DNA of 64,000 nucleotides from Myxococcota bacterium (GCA_049322475.1 JBMOQZ010000244.1:21600-85599), one strand, 5' to 3'. Shown: positions 50,856 to 64,000, numbered from the stretch's first letter. The notes: generated by a model from the letters alone, not told the origin. Numbers and translations: made by a program.

Positions 50856-51044
50856 TCAGGGCCTCCCGGAGGTCGCGCCCGCCTTCGCGGCGTACCTCGG
50901 GGGGTCCCGATCGAAGGCCTGGATGCAGCCATTCGAACAGAACTGGAACGTCCGGCCGGCGTGCTCGCGCGTGCCCACCGCCCGGTCGGGGTCGATGTCC
51001 ATCCCGCAGACCGGGTCCTTCACCTTCGACTTCACGTCCGCCAT
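50856..51044 (-). CDS. YHS-domain protein
   Basis: DPVCGM...FCSNGC...F..DP.RY; AGGAGG RBS. Confidence 0.92.
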   Translation of the reverse strand: MADVKSKVKDPVCGMDIDPDRAVGTREHAGRTFQFCSNGCIQAFDRDPPRYAAKAGATSGRP

Positions 51045-51127
51045 GTCACCTCCTGTCACGGCTCGGGCATGCCCGAGGCCGACAACATGGCCACCCTCGC
51101 CGAGGAGGCCAGTCCGCCCTTCGGGCT

Positions 51128-51144
51128 GTGACAGCCGGGATCAC
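51128..51144. promoter_or_regulatory. GTGAC-N7-GTCAC-type palindrome between the divergent YHS and multicopper oxidase genes
   Basis: tGTGAC-agccggg-ATCACa. Confidence 0.5.
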
Positions 51145-51177
51145 AGACGTTCCTGTCCCCATCGGGTACAGGAGCGC

Positions 51178-52617
51178 ATGCGCCTCCCCGTCCTCGTCCT
51201 CCTCCTCGCCTGCAATCCGGCCGCTCCGTCGAAGGACGAGCCCGGCGGGACCGACGCGGGTGACACCGGCACGCTCCCCGCCCCGGAGGCCTGCGGCTAC
51301 ACCGCTGCCGAAGACCTCGACCCGGCCGACGACGTCGTGGAGGTCGATCTCCGCGCCTCCTCGTACGCCTGGGACCCCGGCACGGGCGTGCCGCTGGAGG
51401 CGGGCCTCGCCTTCGACGAGCAGGTCCCCGGGCCACTGCTGGAGGCGACCCGCGGCGACACGTTGCGGGTCAACTTCACGAACGACACGGATCTCGAGCT
51501 CACGATCCACTGGCACGGCCTGCGGGTCTCGCCCGAGATGGACGGCGTGATGCAGATGATGGACCCGGTCCAGCCCGGCGAGACCTTCACCTACGAGCTC
51601 GCGCTCCAGGACAGCGGCTACTACTGGTACCACCCGCACATGTCCGGCGACACCGTGTTGGAGCGCGGGCTGTACGGGAACATCATCGTCCGCGAGCCGG
51701 GCGAGGGCCGCGCGGACTGCGAGCTCCCCCTCGTGCTGGACGACGTGCTGCTCGACGAGGACACGTGGCAGATCGAGCCGCCCGACACCGACATGATGCA
51801 GCTCATGGGCCGTCTCGGGAACAAGCTTCTCGCCAACGGGAGGACCGACCGGCGTATCGCGGTGACGAAGGGGCAGACCCTGCTCCTGCGCCTCGTCAAC
51901 AGCGCGAACGCGCGCTTCTGGGACCTCCGCCTCGAGGGACACACGATGAAAGTCGTCGCGACGGACGGCGGCTTCGTCGCCGAGCCCTGGGAGGTCGACC
52001 ACCTCCTGCTGGTCCCGGGCGAGCGCTACGTCGTGGCCGTGGAGGCGACCGGCGAGCCGGGCGAGGAGTACCGGCTCCTCAACGCGCGGTTCCAGCTCCA
52101 CGACGAACATGAGTCCGACATGGTGGAGGTCGACCCGATGGGTGACGGCGAGAACCCCGTGTTGTCGCTCGTGTACGGCGACGGCAGCGTGGAGGGGACG
52201 CCGTGGGTCCAGCCCACGCCGGACGTGCCCGCGTGGGACCGCGCCGCGGACGCCTTCGGCCACCAGTGGGTGCTGCAGGAGGACATGATGGGTGGCACCG
52301 TGACGCTGGACGGGGAGACCTGGCCGGACGTGCCGATGGTCTCCGTCGCGGGCAACACCGACACCACGTTCGAGGTCTTCAACGACTCGGAGATGCACCA
52401 CCCCTTCCACATCCACGGCAACCGGTTCCAGATCGTCGCCATCGACGGCGTCGCGCCGACCACGCCGGTCGGCTGGAAGGACACCTGGGACGTGGCGCCC
52501 CAGAGCACGGTCACCGTGGTGAGCGCGCTGGACAACCCAGGCGAGTGGATGGTGCATTGCCACATCCTCGAGCACGCCGAGGACGGCATGGCCGGGCTCA
52601 TGACGGTGGAGCCGTAG
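51178..52617 (+). CDS. Multicopper oxidase lipoprotein (three-domain)
   Basis: IHWHG, WYHPH, HHPFHIHG, HCHILEHAEDGM; LLAC lipobox. Confidence 0.96.
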   Translation: MRLPVLVLLLACNPAAPSKDEPGGTDAGDTGTLPAPEACGYTAAEDLDPADDVVEVDLRASSYAWDPGTGVPLEAGLAFDEQVPGPLLEATRGDTLRVNFTNDTDLELTIHWHGLRVSPEMDGVMQMMDPVQPGETFTYELALQDSGYYWYHPHMSGDTVLERGLYGNIIVREPGEGRADCELPLVLDDVLLDEDTWQIEPPDTDMMQLMGRLGNKLLANGRTDRRIAVTKGQTLLLRLVNSANARFWDLRLEGHTMKVVATDGGFVAEPWEVDHLLLVPGERYVVAVEATGEPGEEYRLLNARFQLHDEHESDMVEVDPMGDGENPVLSLVYGDGSVEGTPWVQPTPDVPAWDRAADAFGHQWVLQEDMMGGTVTLDGETWPDVPMVSVAGNTDTTFEVFNDSEMHHPFHIHGNRFQIVAIDGVAPTTPVGWKDTWDVAPQSTVTVVSALDNPGEWMVHCHILEHAEDGMAGLMTVEP

Positions 52618-52892: not shown

Positions 52893-53582
52893 CTAGGTCT
52901 CCGAGAAGTACGCGATCGCCCGCTCGCCAACGCCCTGCGCGCTGCGCCACCCGAGGATGGCCAGCACCGGCACGCCGAGCCACGCCGTGGCGCGCACGTA
53001 CCAGGGGGCCCCGGCGCCCGACGTCGCGATCGCGCGGCCCATCATCACGTGGCTCGTCGTCGTCGCCACTGCGCGGGCGAGCCCCACCGCGACGAGCTTC
53101 TCGACGAGCTTGCGCACGGTGATGCGAACGCCCATCGTGAGCGCCATCGACTGCAGGTCGTCGTAGTTGGACAGGCGCACGAGCCAGAAGGACACCATGC
53201 GCAGCTTCGGCGACGGCAGGTTCACGCGGTAGGCCGCCGCGACGGCGTAGCAGAGCTCGACCTCGTTCGCGATCTGCCAGAGGGCACCCCCGAACACCGC
53301 GAGGGCGAAGCTGACCCAGGGGCCCAGCAACGGCAGGGAGAGGGGCGCCGCGGTGCCACCCCCGATCGCCGCGGACGTCAGCGCGTAGTCGTCGACCAGA
53401 TCGCGGGCCAGCGCGTCGGCGAGGGCGCGGCCTCCCAGCCCGGTCTCCTCGGCGAGCTCGGCGCGGCGCGCCTCGACGCGCGCGACGATCCGGCCCTCGT
53501 GCTCCCGGACCCCGTCGATCACCCGGAGCAGCGGGAAGTCGCGCTCGTCGCTCCGCACGGCGGGGTCGGCGACGCTCTCCAT
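52893..53582 (-). CDS. EcsC-like protein
   Basis: SAAIGGGTAAP..LPLLG...AVAAAY...VPVL pattern; GGAGG RBS. Confidence 0.6.
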   Translation of the reverse strand: MESVADPAVRSDERDFPLLRVIDGVREHEGRIVARVEARRAELAEETGLGGRALADALARDLVDDYALTSAAIGGGTAAPLSLPLLGPWVSFALAVFGGALWQIANEVELCYAVAAAYRVNLPSPKLRMVSFWLVRLSNYDDLQSMALTMGVRITVRKLVEKLVAVGLARAVATTTSHVMMGRAIATSGAGAPWYVRATAWLGVPVLAILGWRSAQGVGERAIAYFSET

Positions 53583-54412
53583 GTGTCCTCCAAAGGCACG
53601 AGCCCGGGGTGGGCGTGGGCAACCTCGGCGATGAACGCGTCCCAGCCGCGCTCACCGGGGGCGACCAGCTCCTCGGCCACCCAACAACGAACTCGCGGCG
53701 CGGCGGCGGCGCCGATCAGCCAGTCCTGCTGACCGCCGACGCGCCCACCGCGCAGCTGGGCGACGGCGAAGGCCCCCGCGCGCAGCTTCACGTCGATCCA
53801 CGGATCGTCGGCGAGCGAGTAGACGGCCACGTGCGCGGACCAGCCCGCCTGGAACACGGCGCGCTTGAGCCCCGCGAAGACCAGCGGGCAGAGCGGGGTC
53901 GCGCCCCGCGCGAGCACGGCCCCGCGCGTGTCGTCGCCCCACTCGAGCGACGCGTCGGAGACGAGGTGGGTGGCGCCGTCCCCTCCGACGAAGAGCGCCC
54001 ACCCCTGGCGCGCGTAGGACTCGTGCGGGTCCCGCGTCCGCGCCGCGTCGAGCAGGCGCCGCTTCCCCTGGTTGCGCGCGTAGGCCTCGCCCCAGACCAC
54101 GACGTCCGCCTCCGCGAGGCCCGCGTCGGCGAGCACGGCGCGGTAGCTCGGCGGCACCGCCCACGCGCCACCGGGATGTCGCGACGTCAGCGCGAGGTCC
54201 CCGACCATGAGCCCGATGCCGGCGCGCTCCCCCCGCGCGCGCGCCGCGAGGGCCGCGTCGACCGCTGTCGCGAAACAGCAGCGTGTCGTGTCCGTGGTGA
54301 GGGCGCACGCGGCACCGCCGTCCGGCAGCGACACCGGTTCCCCGACGCCCGCACGCGCAGCGAGCGTGAAGTGCCCGCCTTCGAACAACGTCCCGGAAGG
54401 GGTCCCGGCCAT
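53519..54412 (-). CDS. Hypothetical protein, possibly a nucleotidyltransferase-like alpha/beta fold
   Basis: FEGGHF, GLMVGD, WGEAYARNQG; divergent from csoR; fold guess is weak. Confidence 0.55.
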   Translation of the reverse strand: MAGTPSGTLFEGGHFTLAARAGVGEPVSLPDGGAACALTTDTTRCCFATAVDAALAARARGERAGIGLMVGDLALTSRHPGGAWAVPPSYRAVLADAGLAEADVVVWGEAYARNQGKRRLLDAARTRDPHESYARQGWALFVGGDGATHLVSDASLEWGDDTRGAVLARGATPLCPLVFAGLKRAVFQAGWSAHVAVYSLADDPWIDVKLRAGAFAVAQLRGGRVGGQQDWLIGAAAAPRVRCWVAEELVAPGERGWDAFIAEVAHAHPGLVPLEDTWRASPTPPCGATSATSRCSG

Positions 54413-54444
54413 CGGTTGCTACCCTACCCCGGGGCGGGTATATT
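54411..54444 (+). promoter_or_regulatory. Sigma70 promoter with CsoR-type operator
   Basis: TTGCTA-N17-TATATT with TACCCC-GGGG-CGGGTA overlapping the spacer and -10. Confidence 0.8.
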
Positions 54445-54472
54445 CGTCCACGTCAGGCAGGAGCCCCGCCGC

Positions 54473-54769
54473 ATGCCCAAGCGCCCCATCCCCCGCCACG
54501 ACGCCGAGCTGGAATCGCTCTCGCGCATCGAGGGGCAGATCCGCGGCATCAAGGGCATGGTGACGGAGGGCCGCTACTGCGTGGACATCCTCACGCAGAC
54601 CCGCGCCGTTCACGCGGCGCTCCGCCGCGTCGAGCGCAACATCCTGCAGGCCTACCTCGAGACCTGCGTGCAGGACACCTTCTGTGGCGGGAGCGCGGAA
54701 GAGCGCGAGGAGAAGGTACGCGAGGTCCTGACGCTGTTCGACTGGGAGACCACGAAGGGCACGCGATAG
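54473..54769 (+). CDS. csoR: CsoR copper-sensing repressor
   Basis: LSRIEGQIRGIKGMV..GRYCVDILTQ...YLETCV (the usual His ligand is Tyr here). Confidence 0.9.
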   Translation: MPKRPIPRHDAELESLSRIEGQIRGIKGMVTEGRYCVDILTQTRAVHAALRRVERNILQAYLETCVQDTFCGGSAEEREEKVREVLTLFDWETTKGTR

Positions 54770-54796
54770 CGGGCCGCGACCACCGGAGCCGTCCGT

Positions 54797-55075
54797 ATGA
54801 ACCTCAGCCGCTTCCTCGTCCCCTTCGCGCTCGGCGTGGCCGCCGGGGTGCTCATCCACAAGAACTGGCCGAAGATCAAGGAGGTCGGCGCGCCGCTGCT
54901 CAAGGGGGCCGTGCGCCAGGGCAGCAACATCGCGCAGAAGACGCGCGACATGTACTGGGAGAAGAGCGAGAAGTTCTCCGACCTCATCGCCGAGATCCGC
55001 GAGGAGGAGGAGGCGAGGGCGAAGGCCGGCCCCCCCACGCCGCCGGCGCCGCCCCCCGAACCCAAGCCGGCGTAG
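54797..55075 (+). CDS. Small GxxxG membrane protein, DUF5132/FezA-like
   Basis: FALGVAAGVL...PLLKGAVRQG...EKFSDLIAEIREE. Confidence 0.7.
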   Translation: MNLSRFLVPFALGVAAGVLIHKNWPKIKEVGAPLLKGAVRQGSNIAQKTRDMYWEKSEKFSDLIAEIREEEEARAKAGPPTPPAPPPEPKPA

Positions 55076-55083
55076 GAGGTCCC

Positions 55084-55368
55084 ATGCGGTACGCCCTCGG
55101 AAGCCTGCTCCTCGGCACCGCCGCCGTGCTCGGCGGCGCCTGGCTCTACGCGAAGTACGGCCCCCGCAAGCACCGCGCAGCGATCGGCCTGTCCGCGGGC
55201 ATGCTGGTCGGGCAGCAGGTCGGCGCCGCGACTGGCTTCGCGATCGCGGGGCCCGCCGGCCTCGTGCCCGCCGCCCTCGCGGGCGGGATCGCGGGCGCGG
55301 TGATCGGCGAGAGCCTCGCCGAACCCTCGGCCGAGCCCGTCACGCCCCTCTCCCCGGCGCCCGCATGA
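55084..55368 (+). CDS. Glycine-zipper membrane protein
   Basis: GLSAGMLVGQQVGAATG...AGGIAGAVIG; AGGAGG RBS. Confidence 0.75.
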   Translation: MRYALGSLLLGTAAVLGGAWLYAKYGPRKHRAAIGLSAGMLVGQQVGAATGFAIAGPAGLVPAALAGGIAGAVIGESLAEPSAEPVTPLSPAPA

Positions 55369-55586
55369 CGACCCTCCTCGTCCTCATCCTCGCCTGCGGC
55401 GGGGGCGGCAACCCGGCGCGCGAGGCCATCGACAAGGCGGCCGCCGACCCGATGGATCCCAACGGCCCCTCCGGCGCGAACGTGCCCGCCGGGAAGTACT
55501 TCTGCCCGATGCACCCCGAGATCGTGCAGGACACGCCGGGGAAGTGCCCGACGTGCAACATGGACCTCGTCCAGAAGGGGAGCTGA
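55365..55586 (+). CDS. Heavy-metal-binding-domain (HMBD) lipoprotein
   Basis: ILAC; YFCPMHPEI....PGKCPTCNMDL. Confidence 0.9.
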   Translation: MTTLLVLILACGGGGNPAREAIDKAAADPMDPNGPSGANVPAGKYFCPMHPEIVQDTPGKCPTCNMDLVQKGS

Positions 55587-55871
55587 GTGCCCCGGGTGAC
55601 GTTCCAGCCCTCGGGGACGACCCTCGACGTCGACGAGGGCACGTCGATCCTGCAGGCCGCCATCGCGGCGCACGAGACGGACGTGTCGTGCTGCGGCATG
55701 GCCCCGCCGTGCGGGCTCTGCAAGGTGGCGGTGCTCGATGGCGAAGGCGGGCTCACGCCGCCGGACGCCGTAGAGGTGAAGGAGCGGGCGCGCCGCAGAT
55801 TCCTGCCGTTCGAGCGGCTCGGGTGCTTCGCCCAGGTGACCGGCGACGTCGAGGTGGAGGTCGAGCGATGA
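55587..55871 (+). CDS. 2Fe-2S ferredoxin
   Basis: CCGMAPPCGLCKV...RLGC. Confidence 0.85.
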   Translation: MPRVTFQPSGTTLDVDEGTSILQAAIAAHETDVSCCGMAPPCGLCKVAVLDGEGGLTPPDAVEVKERARRRFLPFERLGCFAQVTGDVEVEVER

Positions 55872-56107
55872 ACTGGAAGTGGGCCGTGGGCATCACCGCC
55901 GGGCTGTTCGGCGCCGGCGTGGCGGTCGGGTACGTCGCCCACAAGCGCGGCATCCCGCAGGACGAGATCGGACGCTGGCTCGTCAAGGGCGCGACACGCC
56001 GTGCCCTGCGGCTCTACGACAGCGTCCGCGACGTGCTCCCCGACGAGGCGCCCGTGCCGCTCGCCCGCGCCATCGAGGAAGCGCCGCCGCGCCCGGAGGG
56101 CCTGTGA
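55868..56107 (+). CDS. Small GxxxG membrane protein
   Basis: ATGA overlap; AVGITAGLFGAGVAVG. Confidence 0.7.
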   Translation: MNWKWAVGITAGLFGAGVAVGYVAHKRGIPQDEIGRWLVKGATRRALRLYDSVRDVLPDEAPVPLARAIEEAPPRPEGL

Positions 56108-56607
56108 CCGCCATGACCGAGGCGGGGACGTGGCCCCGCGAGATCCTCGTGCTGAAGCGCGCGTCCGGGTACCTGCGGCTGCACCTGCCGCCGCTGCTCT
56201 ACGCGCCCGCGCTCGCGACGAAGCTGGAGAAGGCGCTCCTCGCGCTCCGCGGTATCCGGCGCGTGGTGATCGACCGCGCGCGGGCCCGCCTCGCCGTGTT
56301 CTACGACCCCTGGCTCACCGATGACCGCCCGGCGCTCCTCGAGATCGACCGGCAGGCTACGCCGCAGCTCGCGCGGATGGAGCCGGAGGCCTTCACAGCG
56401 GCGCTGGTCGAGCAGCGCGAGGCGCGCCGCGATCGCATCGTCGGCAAGATCGTGCAGGCCGTTTACCTCGGTGCGCTCGTGTGGGCGCACTGGTGGGCGC
56501 TGAACCACTGGCTGATGGACCCGTTCCGGTACTGGTGGGCGTGGCTCCTCATCGGCTTCGGCATCTGGACCCACCGACGACAGATCCGGGCCATCCCCCA
56601 GGTGTGA
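56104..56607 (+). CDS. HMA2-like domain protein with two C-terminal TM helices (FezC-like architecture)
   Basis: GYLRLHLP...LRGIRRV.....RLAVFYDP; Trp-rich TM pair. Confidence 0.65.
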
Positions 56608-56615
56608 GGTCCACC

Positions 56616-59354
56616 ATGTTCACCGTCGAGCACGCCCTCTCCACCCGCCTCCGCGTACACGTCCCGCGGCTCAAGGGCTCCGCGGATGCCTGCCGTGCGC
56701 TCGTCGAGGCCCTCGTCGACGAGCCCGGTGTGCTCGCGGCCGCCGCGCAGGAGGCCACGGGCTCGCTGGTCGTGCGCTTCGACCCGCTGGTGCGCCCGCT
56801 GACCACGCTGCTCGACCGGCTCGCGCGCATCGTGAGCGGTCTCTCCGGCCTCGTCGCGCGGGCCCGGCGGCTCGTCGACTGGCTGGAGACCACGCCCGCG
56901 CTCGACGAGCGCATCCCCGGCAAGGCGACGTTCCCGGTCGAGGGGATGACGTGCGCGTCGTGCGCGCAGCGCATCGAGAAGGTGCTCGCGCGCACCCCGG
57001 GGGTGCGCTCCGCGACGGTCAACCTCGCGACGGCGAAGGCGACCGTCGAGGGCGAAGCCACCTGGGGCGCGCTCTTCTCCGCCGTGGAGAAGGCCGGGTA
57101 CAAGGCACATGATCCACGTCCCTCCGCCAGCCACCACCGCACGTTCCGCGTCGAGGGCATGACGTGCGCCTCCTGTGCCGGGCGCATCGAGAAGGCGCTC
57201 GCCAGGGTTCCCGGCGTCGAGCAGGCGACGGTCAACCTCGCGTCCCACAAGGCTGTCGTGCACGGGAAGGCGCTCGACGCCGCGCTGATCATGGCGGTCG
57301 AGGCCGCTGGGTACGAGCTCGTACCCATCGCGACGGTCGAACGTCCCGACGAGGTCCGCGCCCGCGAGCAGGCGCACCTCGAGTCCCTGCGACGAAGGCT
57401 GATCGGCGCGGCCGTCCTCACCGTGCCGGTCCTCGGCATCGCGATGTTCGACCTCATGTTCCCCGGCGCGGGGATCGTGCAGCTCGTCCTCACGACTCCG
57501 GTGGTGTTCTGGGCCGGCCGCGAGTTCTTCGTCGTCGCGTGGAAGCTCGCGCGCGGGCGGACGGCGAACATGGACACGCTCATCGCCATCGGCACCGGCG
57601 CCGCGTACGCCTACAGCGTCTACTCGCTGGTGACCGGCGGGATGATGTACTACTTCGAGGTCGCCGGGACGATCGTCTCGCTCATCCTCCTCGGGAAGTA
57701 CCTCGAGGACCGCGCGAAGACACAGGCGAACGACGCCATCCGCAAGCTCGGCGGCCTCCAGCCGCGGACCGCCCACGTGCTGCGCGGCGACGAGGAGCTC
57801 GAGATCCCGATCGAGGAGGTCCTCGTCGGCGATCGGCTCGTCGTCCGGCCCGGCGAGCGCGTGCCCGTCGACGGCCGCGTGGTCGAGGGGCACTCCGCGG
57901 TCGACGAGTCGATGATCACCGGCGAGAGCCTCGCCGTCTCGCGCGGCCCCGGCGATCCGGTCATCGGGGCGACCGTCAACCGCAACGGCCGCCTCGTGAT
58001 GGAGGCCACGCGGGTCGGCGAGGACACCGCGCTGGCGCACATCATCCGCATGGTCGAGGAGGCGCAGGGCAGCAAGGCGCCGATCCAGCGCATGGCGGAC
58101 GAGGTCAGCGCCCGTTTCGTGCCCGGCGTGCTCGCCGTGGCGGGCGTCACCGTGGTGGGCTGGGCGCTCGCCGGCGCCGGCGTGGCCGGGACGCTGCTGC
58201 CGACGGTGGCCGTGCTCGTCATCGCGTGCCCGTGCGCGCTGGGCCTGGCGACGCCGACCGCCATCATGGTCGGCACCGGCAAGGCGGCCGAGAACGGCAT
58301 ACTCGTGCGCAACGCCGAGGCGTTGGAGCGCGCGCAGAAGATCGACGTGCTCGTGTTCGACAAGACCGGCACGCTCACGAAGGGCGAGCCGGCCGTCACC
58401 GACGTCGAGGTGCTCGTCCCCAGCCGTGCCGGGGAAGAGGTGCTCGCGCTGGTCGCCGCGGCAGAGCGCTACTCCGAGCACCCGCTCGGCGAGGCGATCG
58501 TCGCGCACGCGCGCGGCCTGGGCCTGCACGTGCCCGAGGCGCACGACTTCGAGTCCGTCACGGGCCAGGGCGTGGTCGCGAAGATCCACCACACCCACGA
58601 GGTCCACCACCAGCTCGTCGTGGGCAACCGGAAGCTGATGGAGGCGCAGGGCATCGACGTCGCCGCCTTCGAGCTCGCCGCCCGCGTCGTCGAGGGCTCC
58701 GGCCGTACCGCCATCCTCGCCGCCGCGGACGGGGCTCCGCTCGCGGTCATCGGCGTCGCCGACACGCTCAAGGAGACCTCCGCCGACGCGGTCCGGCGCC
58801 TGCACCAGATGGGCGTGAAGCTGATCATGGCGACGGGCGACAACCCGCGCACCGGCGAGGCGATCGCGCGGGCCGTCGGAATCGACCACGTGCTCGCCGA
58901 GGCGTCGCCGGCCGAGAAGGTCGCGCTGATCAAGAAGCTCCAGGCCCAAGGCGCCGTGGTCGGCATGGTCGGCGACGGCATCAACGACGCGCCCGCCCTC
59001 GCCGCGGCGGACGTCTCGTTCGCGATCGGCACCGGCACGGACATCGCGATGGAGGCCGCCTCGCTGACCCTCATCAAGGGCGACATCGCAAAGGTGGCGA
59101 CCGCCATCGAGCTGTCGACGGCGACCATCCGCATCATCAAGCAGAACCTCTTCTGGGCGTTCGCCTACAACACCGTCGGCATCCCGGTCGCCGCGCTGGG
59201 GCTCCTCTCGCCGATGATCGCGTCGGGGGCGATGGCGCTCTCCTCGGTGTCGGTCGTCACGAACGCGCTGCGCCTGCGCGGGTTCGAACCGGGCGCCGAG
59301 ACCGGGACCGAGCCCGTCGCGCCGACCCCCACCCCGGTGCCGGTGGCGGGCTGA
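56616..59354 (+). CDS. copA: Cu(I)-exporting P1B-1 ATPase with N-terminal HMA2-like domain plus two CxxC HMA domains
   Basis: [12 protein letters not shown]...[10 protein letters not shown]; 2x GMTCASC; [31 protein letters not shown]. Confidence 0.95.
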
Positions 59355-60508
59355 TGCTGCAGCACCGGACACGCCGTGTGGCGCGCGACACCTTCTTCGT
59401 CGCGTCCGCGCTCTCGCTCGCGGGCGCGGGGGTCGCGGGCTTCGCCTTCGAGCACGTGCCGATGGACATGGTGCTCCTGCAGCTCGTGTTCTACGGCGCC
59501 TGGAGCTGCCTGCTGGGCGCGCGCGTCGGCGGGTACATCGGCGCAGCGATGGAAGAGGAGGCTTGCGGCGAGCTCGACATGGGCGTCACCTCGTCGATGG
59601 GCTCCATCCTCGGCACGCTCTCCGCGGGCCTCGTCGGCACGGCCGTGCCGGGGCTCGCACTACAGATGGACTGGCGCCTGATCTTCGGCCTCTGCGTCGG
59701 CGTCGCGCTCGTCCACGCCGTCCTCGGCAAGGTGCTGCCGCTGTCCCTCGTGCGCGCGCCACACCTCGACGCGCGCGGGGCCCTCGTCGGCGAGCCGCCC
59801 GAGCGCCAGCCGCTGCGCATGCGCGATCGCCTCGGCGTGCTCCTCACCGTCGCGTTCGGGCTCCTGCTCGCGCTCACGCTGATCATGGCGCTGATGATGG
59901 GCCGCGACCTCGGCCACCCCGTGATGATGGCGCCGATGATGTACGGCATGTTCGGCACCATGCTTGGCGGGCTCCTCGGCGGCTGGATCGCCGGGCTGCT
60001 CGACGAGCACCGGGGCCACCCCGACCACGACAACCCGGTGATGGTCGCCGCGATGGCGCTCATGGCCGGGATGATGGGCGGCATGCCCTCGGGGATGATC
60101 GGGGCGATGATGGCCGTCATGGGCCGCACGGCGGTCGGGGTGACCGTGGCCACGGGGGTCATCCTCCCGGTGGTGTGCTGGGCCGTCGTGGTGCGCGGGC
60201 GCTACCGCCTCGTGCGCGCGCGGGTCGGCGAGGCGCCGCGCCCGCCGATGCCCGCGTCGGTGCCGATCGCGCGGGAGGTCCTGCCGGTGGAGAGCGTCGG
60301 CGAGGCGATCCTGCGCGTTCGTGGCATGACCTGCGACGCGTGTGTCGGGAAGGTCCGCCGGAAGGTCGGCGAGCTCGCCGGCGTGCAGGAGGTCGACGTG
60401 GACCTCGCCAACGGGCGCGTGCAGGTGCGCTGGGGCGAGGGGTTCGGCGGGCTCGAGGTCGTGCGCGAGCGCATCGTGCGGCTCGGGTACGAAGTCGTGG
60501 AGGCGTGA
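59354..60508 (+). CDS. Met/Gly-rich polytopic membrane protein with C-terminal HMA domain
   Basis: MMAPMMYGMFGTMLGG, MALMAGMMGGMPSGMIGAMM; GMTCDAC. Confidence 0.85.
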   Translation: MLQHRTRRVARDTFFVASALSLAGAGVAGFAFEHVPMDMVLLQLVFYGAWSCLLGARVGGYIGAAMEEEACGELDMGVTSSMGSILGTLSAGLVGTAVPGLALQMDWRLIFGLCVGVALVHAVLGKVLPLSLVRAPHLDARGALVGEPPERQPLRMRDRLGVLLTVAFGLLLALTLIMALMMGRDLGHPVMMAPMMYGMFGTMLGGLLGGWIAGLLDEHRGHPDHDNPVMVAAMALMAGMMGGMPSGMIGAMMAVMGRTAVGVTVATGVILPVVCWAVVVRGRYRLVRARVGEAPRPPMPASVPIAREVLPVESVGEAILRVRGMTCDACVGKVRRKVGELAGVQEVDVDLANGRVQVRWGEGFGGLEVVRERIVRLGYEVVEA

Positions 60509-60723
60509 TGGCCGAGCACACGATCGTCGTGAAGGGGATGACCTGCGAGGCGTGCGTGCGGAGCGTCCGGAAGGCGGTCGGCGTCGTCCCCGGCGTGAAG
60601 GAGGTCGTCGTGGACCTCGGGTCGGGCCGGGTGGAGGTGCGGGTGGACGAGGCGTTCCCCGGCCTCGGCGCGCTCCGCGGGGCCGTGGAGGACGCCGGCT
60701 ACGACGTCGCGGAGGTCCGGTGA
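60508..60723 (+). CDS. copZ: CopZ-like copper chaperone
   Basis: GMTCEACV...AVEDAGY. Confidence 0.92.
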   Translation: MAEHTIVVKGMTCEACVRSVRKAVGVVPGVKEVVVDLGSGRVEVRVDEAFPGLGALRGAVEDAGYDVAEVR

Positions 60724-60908
60724 CGGGCCGCGTCGCCGTCAAGGTGTTCGGCGGCCTCGCGACGCTCGTGGCCGCGCTCGGCGCCTGGTCGCTCGGGAAG
60801 CGTGCGGGACGGTCGGTGGCGCGGGCGACCACGCCGCCCCCCGCGCCGCCGCGGGACCCCGAGACCGGCGAGTTGATCGCCGACGCCGAGGAAGTCCCCG
60901 CCCGGTAG
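60720..60908 (+). CDS. Small single-TM protein
   Basis: GTGA overlap; FGGLATLVAALGAWSLG. Confidence 0.6.
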   Translation: MTGRVAVKVFGGLATLVAALGAWSLGKRAGRSVARATTPPPAPPRDPETGELIADAEEVPAR

Positions 60909-60910
60909 CC

Positions 60911-61822
60911 TCAGAACGCGACGACGTTCACACCCGTCGTCATCGACACATTCTCCGCGTACATCGGGTCCCCGACCACCTGCCACACCGGCACCTGGAC
61001 ACGCGCGACGAGGGTGACGGAGCGGTCGCCCTTGCCCCACACGTTCCACCCCGCGCCGAGCGAGGCGTCGATCGCGGTGGACCCCGTGTTCCTGTAGACC
61101 AGCGCGTCCTGGCGGTCGGTCCCCTGCACCTGGAGGAGCCCGAGGCCGGTGAACGACACGCGCCCGTTCTCCCTGGGGGACCAGCGCGCGCCGATCGCGA
61201 TGTTGCCGCCCGAACCGACGACGTAGCCGTCCGGGGGCACGAACAACGTCGGGGTCGCCCCCGCCGCGGCGAGCAGGGCCGTGCGCGCGCTGACCTTCCG
61301 CGAGGCCTGGAGCCCGAGCAGGCCGCCGACGGCGCCCTTGCCCGCGCGCACCGGCGTGTCCTCGACGACCTTGCCGGTCGGCAGCGTGGCGCCGACCTGC
61401 GCGCCGACGAAGGTGCGCTTGTCCTTGCCGACCCAGCCCCACCGGACGCCCACGCTCGCGTCCGCGAGCGAGCTGGAGTCGACGTCGCCGGGCATCTCCG
61501 ACGGTGCGGCGTGGCGGATGTCGATCCACGGCAAGGCGCCCGTGATGGAGAACCCGGCAGGGAGGCCCACGCTCGCGTTCAGCGTGGCCGAGTTCACGAC
61601 GTGCGGTGGCATGTACATGCCCGCCATGCTGTCGCCGTGGAGATCGGTGACCGAGAAGCCGCGCCACCCGGTGGTGTCTCCGGACAGGCCGATCCCATAG
61701 TCGAGGCTGAACACCCCCTCGCCCGGCCGCGTGACGGCGCCGGTGGGGAGCGCCACGTTCCGGGCGCACACGCAGGCCTGTGCCGCGGCCTCGCCCGAGA
61801 GCGCCAACGTCAGCGCGATCAA
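60911..61822 (-). CDS. Putative outer-membrane beta-barrel transporter with N-terminal CxC
   Basis: Signal ...AAAQA-CVC, LPTG turns, alternating beta strands, terminal F; HGDSMAGMYM loop. Confidence 0.7.
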   Translation of the reverse strand: MIALTLALSGEAAAQACVCARNVALPTGAVTRPGEGVFSLDYGIGLSGDTTGWRGFSVTDLHGDSMAGMYMPPHVVNSATLNASVGLPAGFSITGALPWIDIRHAAPSEMPGDVDSSSLADASVGVRWGWVGKDKRTFVGAQVGATLPTGKVVEDTPVRAGKGAVGGLLGLQASRKVSARTALLAAAGATPTLFVPPDGYVVGSGGNIAIGARWSPRENGRVSFTGLGLLQVQGTDRQDALVYRNTGSTAIDASLGAGWNVWGKGDRSVTLVARVQVPVWQVVGDPMYAENVSMTTGVNVVAF

Positions 61823-62142
61823 GCGAGCACCCCGGCCGCGAACGCGTTCGCTCCGTCCTCGTCGAGCCCCGCGGCGTGGGCAAGCTCGTGCAGCGAGGTC
61901 CAGGCGAGCGTGAGCGGGTCGGCGAAGGCGGCCGGGAAGAGGGTCACCAACCCGGCCACGTGTCGCCCGCGGGCCCCGGGGCGCGCGCGCGACCCCCGTG
62001 GGGCCTCCACCACCTCGCACACCACGCCGAGGCGCTCCCGCGCCAGCGCGATCGCGCGGGCGACGATCGCGTCGGCGTCGTCGGGCGTCACGCCGAGGCG
62101 CGCGACGCGCTCGGCGCCACGGGTCCCGCGGAGGCGCGTCAC
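61819..62142 (-). CDS. Small HExxH protein
   Basis: LHELAHAAG...ANAFA; overlaps both neighbours. Confidence 0.55.
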   Translation of the reverse strand: MTRLRGTRGAERVARLGVTPDDADAIVARAIALARERLGVVCEVVEAPRGSRARPGARGRHVAGLVTLFPAAFADPLTLAWTSLHELAHAAGLDEDGANAFAAGVLA

Positions 62143-62621
62143 TTCGGTGTCGCGGCCTTCACGGCCGCCTTCATGGAGGTCCCCTCCCCGCACTCGGGCA
62201 TCGACCGGCCCATGTACGGGTTGCCGATGCCGGTCGCGCTCTGGATCCAGTAGGCGTAGCCGGTCGTGATCATCGGGCAGTGGTACGCGTACACCTTCGG
62301 GCCCCCGGCGGCGGAGATTCGCAGCACGAGCGCGCGGGACAGCTCTCCGAACGCGGCGCGGCGAGCGGCCTCGTCCGTCGCGCCGGCGACCTTGCCCGCG
62401 AGGAGGGCGATCTCCGGGTCGGCAAGACCGGCGAGCAGGCGCGCGCTGGCCGCAGCGTCGGCGTGACGGTCCTCGACGAGCGCCTCGCGGGTAGCGTCGT
62501 ACGCGTCGAGCCAAGCCGCGGGGACCGGAGCGTTCGCCACCGCGCTGGCGCCCGGGGTGCCGTCGGCGGCGACCGCCCGGGACGGCGCGAGCGCGAACAG
62601 GAGCAGGACCAGCATGGACAC
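62139..62621 (-). CDS. DUF3347 periplasmic metal-binding protein
   Basis: RAAFGELS, YHCPM, W, IGNPYMGRSMPECG. Confidence 0.85.
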   Translation of the reverse strand: MSMLVLLLFALAPSRAVAADGTPGASAVANAPVPAAWLDAYDATREALVEDRHADAAASARLLAGLADPEIALLAGKVAGATDEAARRAAFGELSRALVLRISAAGGPKVYAYHCPMITTGYAYWIQSATGIGNPYMGRSMPECGEGTSMKAAVKAATPK

Positions 62622-63656: not shown

Positions 63657-64000
63657 CTATTTCGCGATCGCCGGCGCGCGCGAGAAGGCCTGGCACGCGC
63701 GCTCGGCGGCGCGACAGGACTGGGCGCACAGCTTGCAGTGCTCCATCGTCGCGTGTCTCTCACACTCGGTCGCGCACGCCGCGCAGGCGGCTTCACAGGC
63801 GCGGACGAGCGCCTCCACGACCTTCCAGTCCGTAGCCGTCGCGCGGGAGAGGACGGCCGCCGTGGCCGCGCAAACGTCGGCGCAGTCCTGGTTCAGGCGG
63901 ATGCAACGGGTGAGGACCTCCCCCTTGTTCTCCGCCAGGCAGGCGTCCGCGCACGTGACACACGCCTGGGCACAGTCGAGACAGGCGTTGATGCAATCGA
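63657..64000 (-). CDS. Cys-rich four-helix-bundle copper storage protein (Csp3/DUF326-like); 5' end lies outside the window
   Basis: Hand translation: DCINACLDCAQACVTCADAC...CIRLNQDCADVC...CEAACAACATEC..H..MEHCKLCAQSCRAAERAC; not in the ORF track. Confidence 0.9.
   Translation of the reverse strand, partial: DCINACLDCAQACVTCADACLAENKGEVLTRCIRLNQDCADVCAATAAVLSRATATDWKVVEALVRACEAACAACATECERHATMEHCKLCAQSCRAAERACQAFSRAPAIAK

Follow-up and report, generated by a model that had tools for sequence, protein, structure and literature searches.

A conserved yet rare operon of Myxococcota predicted to combine a CopA-type copper pump with small scaffold-like proteins

Ferrosomes, intracellular amorphous CaCO3 (iACC) and effluxosomes have been studied apart, and each combines a cation transporter with small glycine-zipper or GxxxG proteins and with an HMA-like domain that is basic and free of Cys. 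The available portions of two articles (PMC13043812, PMC13460109) describe PacL proteins as small DUF1490 proteins that have an N-terminal transmembrane (TM) helix and depend on its GxxG motif for clustering. The metal-binding domains of the pumps, which in CtpC and CtpG are without CxxC, are bound by cytosolic Ala/Glu repeats of PacL. According to the same portions, pacL3 lies with the P1B-1 pump gene ctpV in a CsoR-controlled operon of Mycobacterium tuberculosis, PacL is reported only from Actinobacteria, and CtpV did not raise copper tolerance in M. smegmatis, so that a role in copper supply was proposed (PMC13043812, PMC13460109). In the present study, we analyzed a 64,000-nucleotide stretch of one strand of a Myxococcota bacterium genome (GCA_049322475.1, JBMOQZ010000244.1:21600-85599), which is hereafter called the window. 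An operon at positions 54473-60908 of the window places the same kinds of parts around a CopA pump, the metal pump that is understood best, outside Actinobacteria, together with a repressor-operator switch and a compact core. It is predicted to encode a module of a P1B pump with small scaffold-like partners that is conserved yet rare. By analogy, this module is closest to csoR-pacL3-ctpV in gene order, regulator and pump class.

The operon comprises 11 genes on the + strand, as judged from open reading frame (ORF) calls and family matches. The region has a guanine-cytosine (GC) content of approximately 72%, which generates many spurious ORFs, and genes were accepted only with a family match or the backing of orthologues. 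The first-pass annotation had listed eleven ORFs, all of which are present on the + strand at the positions given there. Its view of a tightly coupled operon under a CsoR operator stood; however, its count of ten genes did not, and the start of the ATPase was corrected to the ATG at 56616. Neighbouring genes overlap by 1-4 nucleotides, abut directly or are separated by 8-27 nucleotides, the gap of 27 nucleotides being that between csoR and g2. The features are as follows, in which E denotes the expect value and HMBD a heavy-metal-binding domain.

54416-54444, + strand: promoter and repressor box (-35 TTGCTA, 17-nucleotide spacer, -10 TATATT)
54473-54769, + strand: csoR-family repressor, 98 amino acids (PF02583, E 2.1e-24)
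54797-55075, + strand: g2, predicted DUF5132 single-pass membrane protein, 92 amino acids (PF17195 sub-threshold; orthologues match)
55084-55368, + strand: g3, putative glycine-zipper membrane protein, 94 amino acids, variable accessory gene (sub-threshold matches)
55365-55586, + strand: g4, HMBD lipoprotein, accessory gene (PF19335, E 1.5e-14; lipobox ILAC)
55587-55871, + strand: g5, 2Fe-2S-type ferredoxin, 94 amino acids, core gene (PF00111, E 1.5e-9)
55868-56107, + strand: g6, second DUF5132-like single-pass protein, 79 amino acids (paralogue of g2 by BLASTP)
56104-56607, + strand: g7, predicted Cys-less HMA_2/CoBaHMA-type domain with a long helical hairpin, 167 amino acids, core gene (structure model, hhalign and orthologues)
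56616-59354, + strand: predicted CopA-type Cu(I) P1B-1 ATPase, 912 amino acids (motifs, TIGR01511 and tree)
59354-60508, + strand: g9, Met/His-rich polytopic membrane protein, 384 amino acids, core gene (C-terminal HMA match only)
60508-60723, + strand: copZ, CopZ-type Cu(I) chaperone, 71 amino acids (PF00403, E 6.8e-15)
60720-60908, + strand: g11, small single-pass protein, 62 amino acids (TM helix at residues 5-23)
52893-54412, - strand: divergent pair u297 (53519-54412) and u229 (52893-53582), conserved neighbours without a known family

As in the partial accounts of csoR-pacL3-ctpV, one operon joins a P1B-1 pump to a repressor of the CsoR family and a small single-pass protein. The small proteins also resemble PacL, as far as it is described there, in having a Gly-xx(x)-Gly groove in the N-terminal TM helix, a cytosolic Glu/Ala-rich segment and more than one small paralogue, and the PacL partner pumps CtpC and CtpG have Cys-less N-terminal domains, similar to the window pump. 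However, the window proteins are predicted to belong to DUF5132 rather than to DUF1490 and are without the C-terminal His-rich metal-binding motif. The module further adds g7, the ferredoxin, g9 and u229, and its hosts are Myxococcota.

The ferrosome (fez) operons are similar in the kinds of parts. In the portions available of the ferrosome preprint (bioRxiv 10.1101/2020.01.10.902569), FezB is a P1B-6 pump with an N-terminal R-rich motif, FezC consists of an HMA domain and two TM helices, and FezA, FezE and FezG are small GxxxG proteins with a hydrophobic region; CopA clades are without the R-rich motif, CtpC has it, and DUF5132 is not mentioned. Compared at the level of these descriptions, the window operon shares the R-rich motif on the pump (R11-x-R13) and on the cluster protein, a separate predicted HMA protein with two TM helices (g7 versus FezC) and small GxxxG proteins. 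In contrast, the window pump is a predicted CopA and not a P1B-6 ATPase, the regulation and neighbours point to copper and not to iron, and the window operon contains a ferredoxin, g9 and CxxC domains that those descriptions do not include. The genes around it are copper genes, without the iron context of fez (Fur/DtxR, Feo). Ferrosome-named NCBIfam models gave no match at E <= 0.1 among the ten operon proteins scanned, copZ not being among them. The first-pass annotation had proposed that fez-like parts were recruited to a copper pump. The kinds of domains do match; however, neither the pump class nor the regulation and neighbourhood are those of a fez operon. It had also associated fez operons with DUF5132, a term absent from the available portions of the preprint.

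A third similar set of parts is known from cyanobacteria. The available portions of a preprint on Microcystis (bioRxiv 10.1101/2024.07.07.602159) place a CoBaHMA-hairpin protein, two DUF5132 proteins, glycine-zipper proteins and a Ca2+/H+ exchanger around ccyA. They describe the "CoBaHMA_DUF454-Cter" protein as a CoBaHMA domain with a hairpin, and report that one DUF5132 gene is co-expressed with ccyA (bioRxiv 10.1101/2024.07.07.602159). Within the limits of that account, Microcystis aeruginosa PCC 7806 and, by prediction, the window share a CoBaHMA domain with a C-terminal hairpin, two DUF5132 proteins (a TM helix and a long helix), a glycine-zipper protein and a cation transporter. However, the cyanobacterial transporter is a Ca2+/H+ exchanger, the product is iACC, and a P-type ATPase, a repressor, a ferredoxin and g9 are not part of that set as described. 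The beta0 His of calcyanin, in the form described there, is kept in the domain of the window pump, but not in g7.

The csoR-copZ-copA operon of Bacillus subtilis has a CsoR operator over its promoter, CopZ and a CopA with two CxxC HMA domains, as does the window operon. In contrast to this canonical arrangement, the window operon adds at least five conserved genes, a Cys-less pump domain and a repressor without the ligand His. A description of the module was not found in the literature searched, which covered few subscription journals.

The module was found in 10 loci of 9 genomes, and the hosts are metagenome-assembled genomes of Myxococcota. Its recurring core consists of the csoR-like repressor, the ferredoxin, a DUF5132 protein, g7, the pump and g9. 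The ferredoxin, a DUF5132 gene, g7 and the pump each occur in all ten loci, the repressor in nine (the contig of the tenth is cut), and g9 in all six loci in which the DNA continues. The DUF5132 gene always lies upstream of the pump. The other genes are less constant: g6 is present in the seven high-GC loci and absent from the three low-GC loci (7/10), u229 occurs in eight loci, u297 in six, the HMBD lipoprotein g4 in five and relatives of g3 in two. The low-GC loci (41-49% GC) have 30-56% protein identity to the window, and the GC content of the module ranges between 41 and 75%. Whether the small genes keep their linkage to the ATPase in other genomes had been raised as a check in the first-pass annotation, and the linkage is indeed kept in the 10 loci across deep divergence.

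The module is also rare. In 60 relatives, g7 was found only four times, in one genome each, and a pattern scan of 185,579 species genomes yielded six loci, four of which were those relatives. A 301-genome sample around the genome of the low-GC locus L022 added two further genomes with the module. HMA_2 was found in 3/301 and 5/301 genomes of the samples around G000 (the genome of the window) and G336 (that of L022), respectively, and the g2/g6 profile in none of the 300 other genomes of the first sample, with 17 candidates per genome being scored. We do not claim a spread over two phyla; the two genome samples share none of the genomes listed, yet L022 is labelled Myxococcota. Within the bin of the window, a second copy of the operon lies on contig C133 (L006, 6118-11648) with 79-96% protein identity and with u297 and u229 upstream; it is without g3, one CxxC HMA domain, copZ and g11. 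This copy may be a true duplication or may derive from a co-binned related strain (bin contamination, 6.17%).

The pump is predicted to be a true CopA-type Cu(I) P1B-1 ATPase. Its motifs C538-P539-C540, Y851-N852, M873/S876/S877 and D582-K-T-G-T are all invariant in five orthologues, and the P1B-6 motifs D[Y/F]SCA and HNxxT are absent, with CPC, YN and MxxSS in their place. The N-terminal HMA_2/CoBaHMA-type domain (approximately residues 1-60) precedes a long helix, then come two HMA domains with CxxC and, last, an 8-TM core. TIGR01511 matched with 593.3 bits against a cut-off of 397. The solved ATPases matched by the pump were Archaeoglobus fulgidus CopA (3j09, E 2.4e-175), Legionella pneumophila CopA (E 1.3e-162) and ZntA (4umv, E 1.7e-87), the CopA structures being favoured over ZntA by roughly 90 orders of magnitude. 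A tree of the ATPase core was built from 23 rows, comprising the pump and six orthologues, ten P-type ATPases of the same genome, four HMA_2 pumps and two CPC pumps from a profile search. The seven module pumps form a clade (100/99) that is nested in the CPC CopA group (95/98, 14 rows), and a clade of their own (95/91) holds the four remaining HMA_2-bearing pumps. Given the long branches of several rows and a root placed only at the midpoint, we read this tree as placing the core among CopA, not as dating the gain of the domain. The assignment to Cu(I) P1B-1 in the first-pass annotation, from CPC, YN, MxxSS and two CxxC domains, agrees with TIGR01511 and the tree. At least seven loci of the host genome are of the CPC CopA-like kind. 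Contigs C38, C381, C7, C91 and C274 encode five such pumps besides that of the module, with 45-52% identity, and an HMBD-like stretch lies directly 5' of, or within, the N-terminus in three of these five.

The N-terminus of the pump carries the Cys-less domain. PF19991 is the CoBaHMA family according to the available part of the Microcystis preprint (bioRxiv 10.1101/2024.07.07.602159), and the available part of another source defines CoBaHMA by basic residues and an additional strand, beta0, in which a His is conserved (PMC8890360). The window domain scored 25.5-26.4 bits against a PF19991 cut-off of 30; all eight orthologous pump N-termini matched at E <= 0.1 (best E 6.4e-9), and two clusters of pump orthologues have a precomputed PF19991 match. 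H6, R11, R13 and P17 are invariant in the eight orthologues, RxRxR occurs in several, and CxxC is absent. An AlphaFold2 model of residues 1-110 (predicted local distance difference test [pLDDT], 79) has the order strand-strand-helix-strand-strand-long helix, with strands at residues 3-7 and 11-15 followed by a helix at 23-34, and its strand order is that of g7. A beta0 strand with a His, a basic beta1 and no CxxC, the marks of CoBaHMA (PMC8890360), are all found in the pump N-terminus. Its weak neighbours in the PDB were HMA domains, a KipI-like protein and the N-terminal extension of CzcP, and a word-based search with residues 1-100 found three proteins among 3112 candidates. The "H..sRlR" Cys-less HMA2-like start that the first-pass annotation had described is borne out by the invariance of H6, R11 and R13 and by PF19991 in 8/8 orthologues.

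By sequence profile and predicted fold, g7 is a divergent HMA_2-type domain with a hairpin. Its AlphaFold2 model (mean pLDDT, 90.6) consists of a beta-beta-alpha-beta-beta-alpha unit and a long helical hairpin, and its best folds in the PDB are HMA domains (E >= 1.8e-3). The soluble part has an isoelectric point (pI) of 10.8. A comparison of the g7 profile with the pump N-terminal domain by hhalign gave a probability of 82% (E 1.1e-5); by BLASTP, the match of g7 to the pump N-terminus was not significant (E 0.8), and the relation was seen only with profiles. PF19991 did not match g7 of the window; against its cut-off of 30, the L022 orthologue (35% identity to g7) scored 31.2 bits and those of L033 and L035 scored 23.1 and 27.7 bits, respectively. 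The close g7 family had HMA_2 matches in 0/25 members and weak HMA matches in 8/25 when scanned against Pfam. The family is small, since in an exhaustive search of 1.84 billion representatives the g7 profile matched no more than 80 proteins at E <= 1e-3, of which 11 were at E <= 1e-10; of 40 of these 80 remote matches that were scanned, nine had HMA_2 (best E 3.1e-17) and eight had HMA. The beta0 His of the calcyanin type is absent from g7, in which R19, G22, Y23, L24 and R25 are invariant and H27 follows in beta1; its basic motif is an invariant Arg followed by R-L-H or R-x-H. The HMA2-like protein with TM helices that had been proposed at this position is in agreement with the fold, the hhalign match and the L022 orthologue above the cut-off. 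The top PDB sequence match of the g7 profile was the rice Cu-ATPase HMA4 (8q73, E 3.5e-6), with an alignment that spans the last HMA domain, the linker and the beginning of the first membrane helix. The g7-type proteins may derive from the N-terminal part of a P1B pump.

The small proteins g2 and g6 are predicted to be paralogous DUF5132 single-pass proteins. PF17195 scored 17.6 bits against a cut-off of 25 on window g2 and did not match window g6; however, a DUF5132 profile search of the small GxxxG proteins, which the first-pass annotation had suggested, matched 11/18 members of the g2/g6 family (best E 5.3e-8), and 5/12 clusters of g2 orthologues have a precomputed PF17195 match. By BLASTP, g2 and g6 align at E 1e-7, with 37% identity over 43 amino acids. 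F10, G13 and G17 are invariant in the TM helix (small-xxx-small/GxxxG), which spans residues 3-21 in g2 and 6-24 in g6. Past this helix, g2 continues with a cytosolic helix and a conserved stretch that is acidic and rich in Glu and Ala, and it ends in a Pro-rich tail. The Glu/Ala-rich stretch is common to the g2 orthologues, whereas g6 is without it. Both tails are Pro-rich, without Cys and with one His each. The third candidate of this kind, g3, had only sub-threshold matches to YiaD_Gzip (E 0.0046) and Gly-zipper_Omp (E 0.33). Its relatives were seen only in L022 (two copies, 38% identity) and it is absent from the C133 copy; it was rejected as a core part.

The remaining structural genes are mixed in their conservation. 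The ferredoxin g5 has a pI of 4.6, and its five cysteines (CC-x5-C-x2-C...C) are invariant in 10/10 orthologues. The lipoprotein g4 has the lipobox ILAC and a C-terminal HMBD and is presumably periplasmic. A CxxC HMA domain (PF00403, E 8e-13) that had been missed in the earlier listing ends g9; outside this domain, g9 had no family in Pfam and NCBIfam scans and no usable ESM Atlas match. Orthologues of g9 with 41-93% identity share acidic, Met and His motifs, and two low-GC orthologues (41-45% identity) are without the HMA domain. Among the conserved motifs of g9 are Met-rich helices, a DEH..P.HDNP loop, and one stretch each of the acidic-Cys and QPxxM kinds. A separate copZ gene was seen only in the window operon, and elsewhere the CopZ query matched HMA domains inside the pump or g9. 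No family match was obtained for g11 and no relatives outside the window locus (a single genome match).

Upstream of csoR, the region shows one predicted promoter, overlapped by a CsoR-type operator, that would drive the 11 coupled genes. With a -35 hexamer at 54416 and a -10 hexamer that ends at 54444, this promoter is the sole sigma-70-like site in 54300-61100 (mean in shuffles, 0.1). The palindrome TACCC-N11-GGGTA at 54420-54440 (inner TACCCC-N4-..GGGTA) is bracketed by the two hexamers and resembles published CsoR-type boxes. A matching box lies 5' of csoR in 6/7 loci examined; it was not seen at L022 in the 140 nucleotides 5' of csoR that were examined.

The fold of the CsoR family (PF02583) and a GC-rich palindromic operator between -35 and -10 are both present, but the metal site differs. 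H9, C36 and C65 of the repressor are conserved; four residues ahead of the second Cys, where the ligand His canonically lies, the repressor has Tyr (Y61). The x-C-H-C ligand fingerprint of CsoR is therefore broken by replacement of the His, with C36 and C65 kept. In 9/9 repressor orthologues, this position is Y, F or T and the N-terminal His is invariant. The resulting H-C-x-C pattern appears to be a CsoR-family fingerprint distinct from the canonical copper site. The solved structures nearest to the repressor are CsoR 4m1p (E 3.4e-15), InrS and CsoR 4adz, in which the His aligns with Y61; in 7mq1 and 7mq3, an Ala is aligned at this position. A tblastn search across the genome found no CsoR-family gene besides the window copy and the C133 copy.

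By analogy with PacL, we speculate that the operon encodes a scaffolded Cu(I) efflux platform, in which a CopA-type pump works in an organised membrane assembly, and we regard this proposal as an even call. When cytosolic Cu(I) rises, the repressor would leave the operator, with Cu(I) possibly held by the invariant N-terminal His together with C36 and C65. The pump would receive Cu(I) from CopZ and the CxxC domains and expel it to the periplasm, where the HMBD lipoprotein and the neighbouring multicopper oxidase could handle it; the presence of the latter two suggests the periplasm as the destination. The DUF5132 proteins may be PacL-like, with self-association of their GxxxG-type TM helices. 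The acidic Glu/Ala-rich helix of g2 may bind the pump, g7 or both through their basic Cys-less domains, and this binding would stabilise the pump and cluster it in membrane nanodomains. The acidic ferredoxin could keep copper reduced or dock on the basic domains, and docking is conceivable from its pI of 4.6 against that of 10.8 for the soluble part of g7. In the membrane, g9 may bind or conduct Cu(I). A prediction of the complex of pump residues 255-905 with g7 and g2 scored 0.05 against a mark of 0.32 and was not used for or against binding.

Several points weigh against this proposal. Copper sensing by the repressor is likely from the context of the operon; however, the ligand His is absent in 9/9 orthologues, and x-C-x-C relatives of CsoR sense persulfide. 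Neither g2 nor g6 has the PacL1-type C-terminal His/Cys metal-binding motif, and DUF1490 (PF07371) matched 0/18 members of the g2/g6 family at E <= 1. The HMBD lipoprotein (5/10 loci) and the multicopper oxidase (window only) are outside the conserved core. The efflux role of the analogue is itself unsettled, with no gain in tolerance from CtpV in M. smegmatis in the available portions of the reports (PMC13043812, PMC13460109). Furthermore, two of the three known settings of such parts, ferrosomes and iACC, are intracellular mineral compartments as described in the available parts of the preprints (bioRxiv 10.1101/2020.01.10.902569; 10.1101/2024.07.07.602159).

In a rather unlikely alternative, the operon supplies Cu(I) to periplasmic or membrane cuproenzymes, such as the adjacent multicopper oxidase, with the ferredoxin and g9 serving redox chemistry or insertion. 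This is the role proposed for CtpV, the partner of PacL3, in the partial accounts in which it did not raise tolerance in M. smegmatis. The multicopper oxidase 2 kb upstream would suit such a role, but it is not beside the other loci examined. The many other CopA-like pumps could perform bulk efflux, and a conserved redox protein (g5) belongs to the operon; however, a CsoR-family repressor with a promoter-overlapping operator suggests induction by excess copper, and Pfam and NCBIfam scans of the operon found no assembly factor of a known cuproenzyme. An improbable reading starts from the mineral settings and assumes a copper-sequestering compartment: an internal or invaginated membrane would hold g7, the small GxxxG or glycine-zipper proteins and the pump, and Cu(I) would be loaded into the lumen to be stored or detoxified, in the way that FezB, FezC and FezA load iron in ferrosomes. 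Placed in a vesicle membrane, a P1B pump would load the lumen with its mechanism unchanged, and with at least seven CPC CopA-like pumps in the genome, that of the window is possibly specialised. The kinds of parts are those described for fez (the R-rich motif of the pump, an HMA protein with two TM helices and small GxxxG proteins), but the pump is not P1B-6, and the regulation is of the CsoR type without an iron or Fur context. The iACC-forming Microcystis, in its partial description, has a CoBaHMA-hairpin protein, two DUF5132 proteins (one of them co-expressed) and a glycine-zipper protein flanking ccyA; however, genes for a lumenal mineral or counter-ion were not seen here, and an exported HMBD lipoprotein with a multicopper oxidase fits handling in the periplasm. 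A literature search found no membrane-bound bacterial copper compartment among the papers it listed, the known storage being by copper-storage (Csp) proteins. The first-pass annotation had suggested a copper organelle or membrane microdomain without naming csoR-pacL3-ctpV or the PacL effluxosomes, which "microdomain" fits better than "organelle".

Two further readings concern the signal and the gene set. The regulator could sense persulfide or another thiol-reactive stress, similar to CstR, and the operon could answer combined copper and sulfur or redox stress. The replacement of the ligand His by Y, F or T in 9/9 orthologues is in its favour, as is the fact that this position is His in solved CsoR and InrS and Ala in 7mq1 and 7mq3, and the conserved ferredoxin would be in place. 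However, the invariant H9 with C36 and C65 could form an S2N Cu(I) site, every identifiable structural gene is copper-related, and the likeness of the operator to published CsoR-type boxes also counts against this view. We consider it doubtful, with little expectation that it is correct. In contrast, an ordinary csoR-copZA operon with the small ORFs as passengers or mis-calls is scarcely credible. High GC (approximately 72%) does breed spurious ORFs, and g3, copZ and g11 are variable, but in loci of 41-49% GC, at 30-56% identity, g2, g5, g7 and g9 still accompany the pump, start and stop codons overlap, and g7 is modelled at a pLDDT of 90.6. The g2/g6 profile in none of 300 other sampled genomes also argues against passengers, and the linkage across loci already contradicts this reading.

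The operon makes several ideas testable in a simple system, namely, that CoBaHMA domains and DUF5132-type proteins organise P1B pumps in the membrane and that an acidic tail binds a basic domain. It also adds three unexplained conserved partners, the ferredoxin, g9 and u229. CoBaHMA and DUF5132 parts on a CopA pump would be surprising to a specialist. A compartment, if it were nevertheless real, would provide the first bacterial example of a membrane-bound copper store. Such a "cuprosome", a copper-loading compartment or invagination shaped and filled by the pump, the FezC-like g7 and the DUF5132 and glycine-zipper proteins, is a long shot in our estimate; it would mean that one toolkit of CoBaHMA and GxxxG or glycine-zipper proteins lies behind the handling of iron, calcium, zinc/cadmium and copper.

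The divergent genes u297 and u229 share the csoR intergenic region, with its operator, and are transcribed away from the operon. Among the nine other loci, u297 adjoins five and u229 seven (L013 being counted through L018). Neither had a Pfam family match; u229 matched its L022 orthologue at E 2e-33. The low-GC loci L022 and L035 (u229 only) are among these; there, u229 lies on the opposite side of the pump or follows it. An assignment of u229 to the EcsC family was rejected: its BLASTP match to the EcsC protein of L025 was not significant, and PF12787 matched one of eight proteins, that of L025 only.

Two other HMA_2 loci, in genomes from the samples around G000 and G336, have PacL-like arrangements. 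L025 (1623-5604) encodes, in order, a 95-amino-acid TM protein, a full-length HMA_2 protein with TM helices (56 bits) and an HMA_2-bearing non-CPC ATPase, after which an EcsC-family gene lies on the opposite strand. L034 (3999-6655, - strand) encodes an HMA_2-bearing pump, a 104-amino-acid single-pass protein with a Glu/His-rich end and a cation diffusion facilitator (CDF) transporter. We make no claim of homology to g2 and g6 for the 104-amino-acid protein, whose likeness to them is confined to the TM helix (hhalign probability 70%, 20 columns). From these two loci, the pairing of an HMA_2 pump with a small single-pass protein is not tied to one metal.

Other genes of the window near the operon were also noted. 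The multicopper oxidase, with three Cu-oxidase domains, is encoded at 50923-52617 (+ strand), 2 kb upstream of the operon, and was not found beside any other module locus examined. At 62139-62621 (- strand), a 160-amino-acid ORF without a Pfam family may be another loosely linked neighbour; a relative of it (36% identity over 86 amino acids, E 1e-11) lies at the end of L033. A Cys-rich helical ORF at 63657-63998 (- strand) runs off the end of the window; it scored 19.7 bits for DUF326 against a cut-off of 20.4, and we take it to resemble the four-helix-bundle copper-storage (Csp) type.

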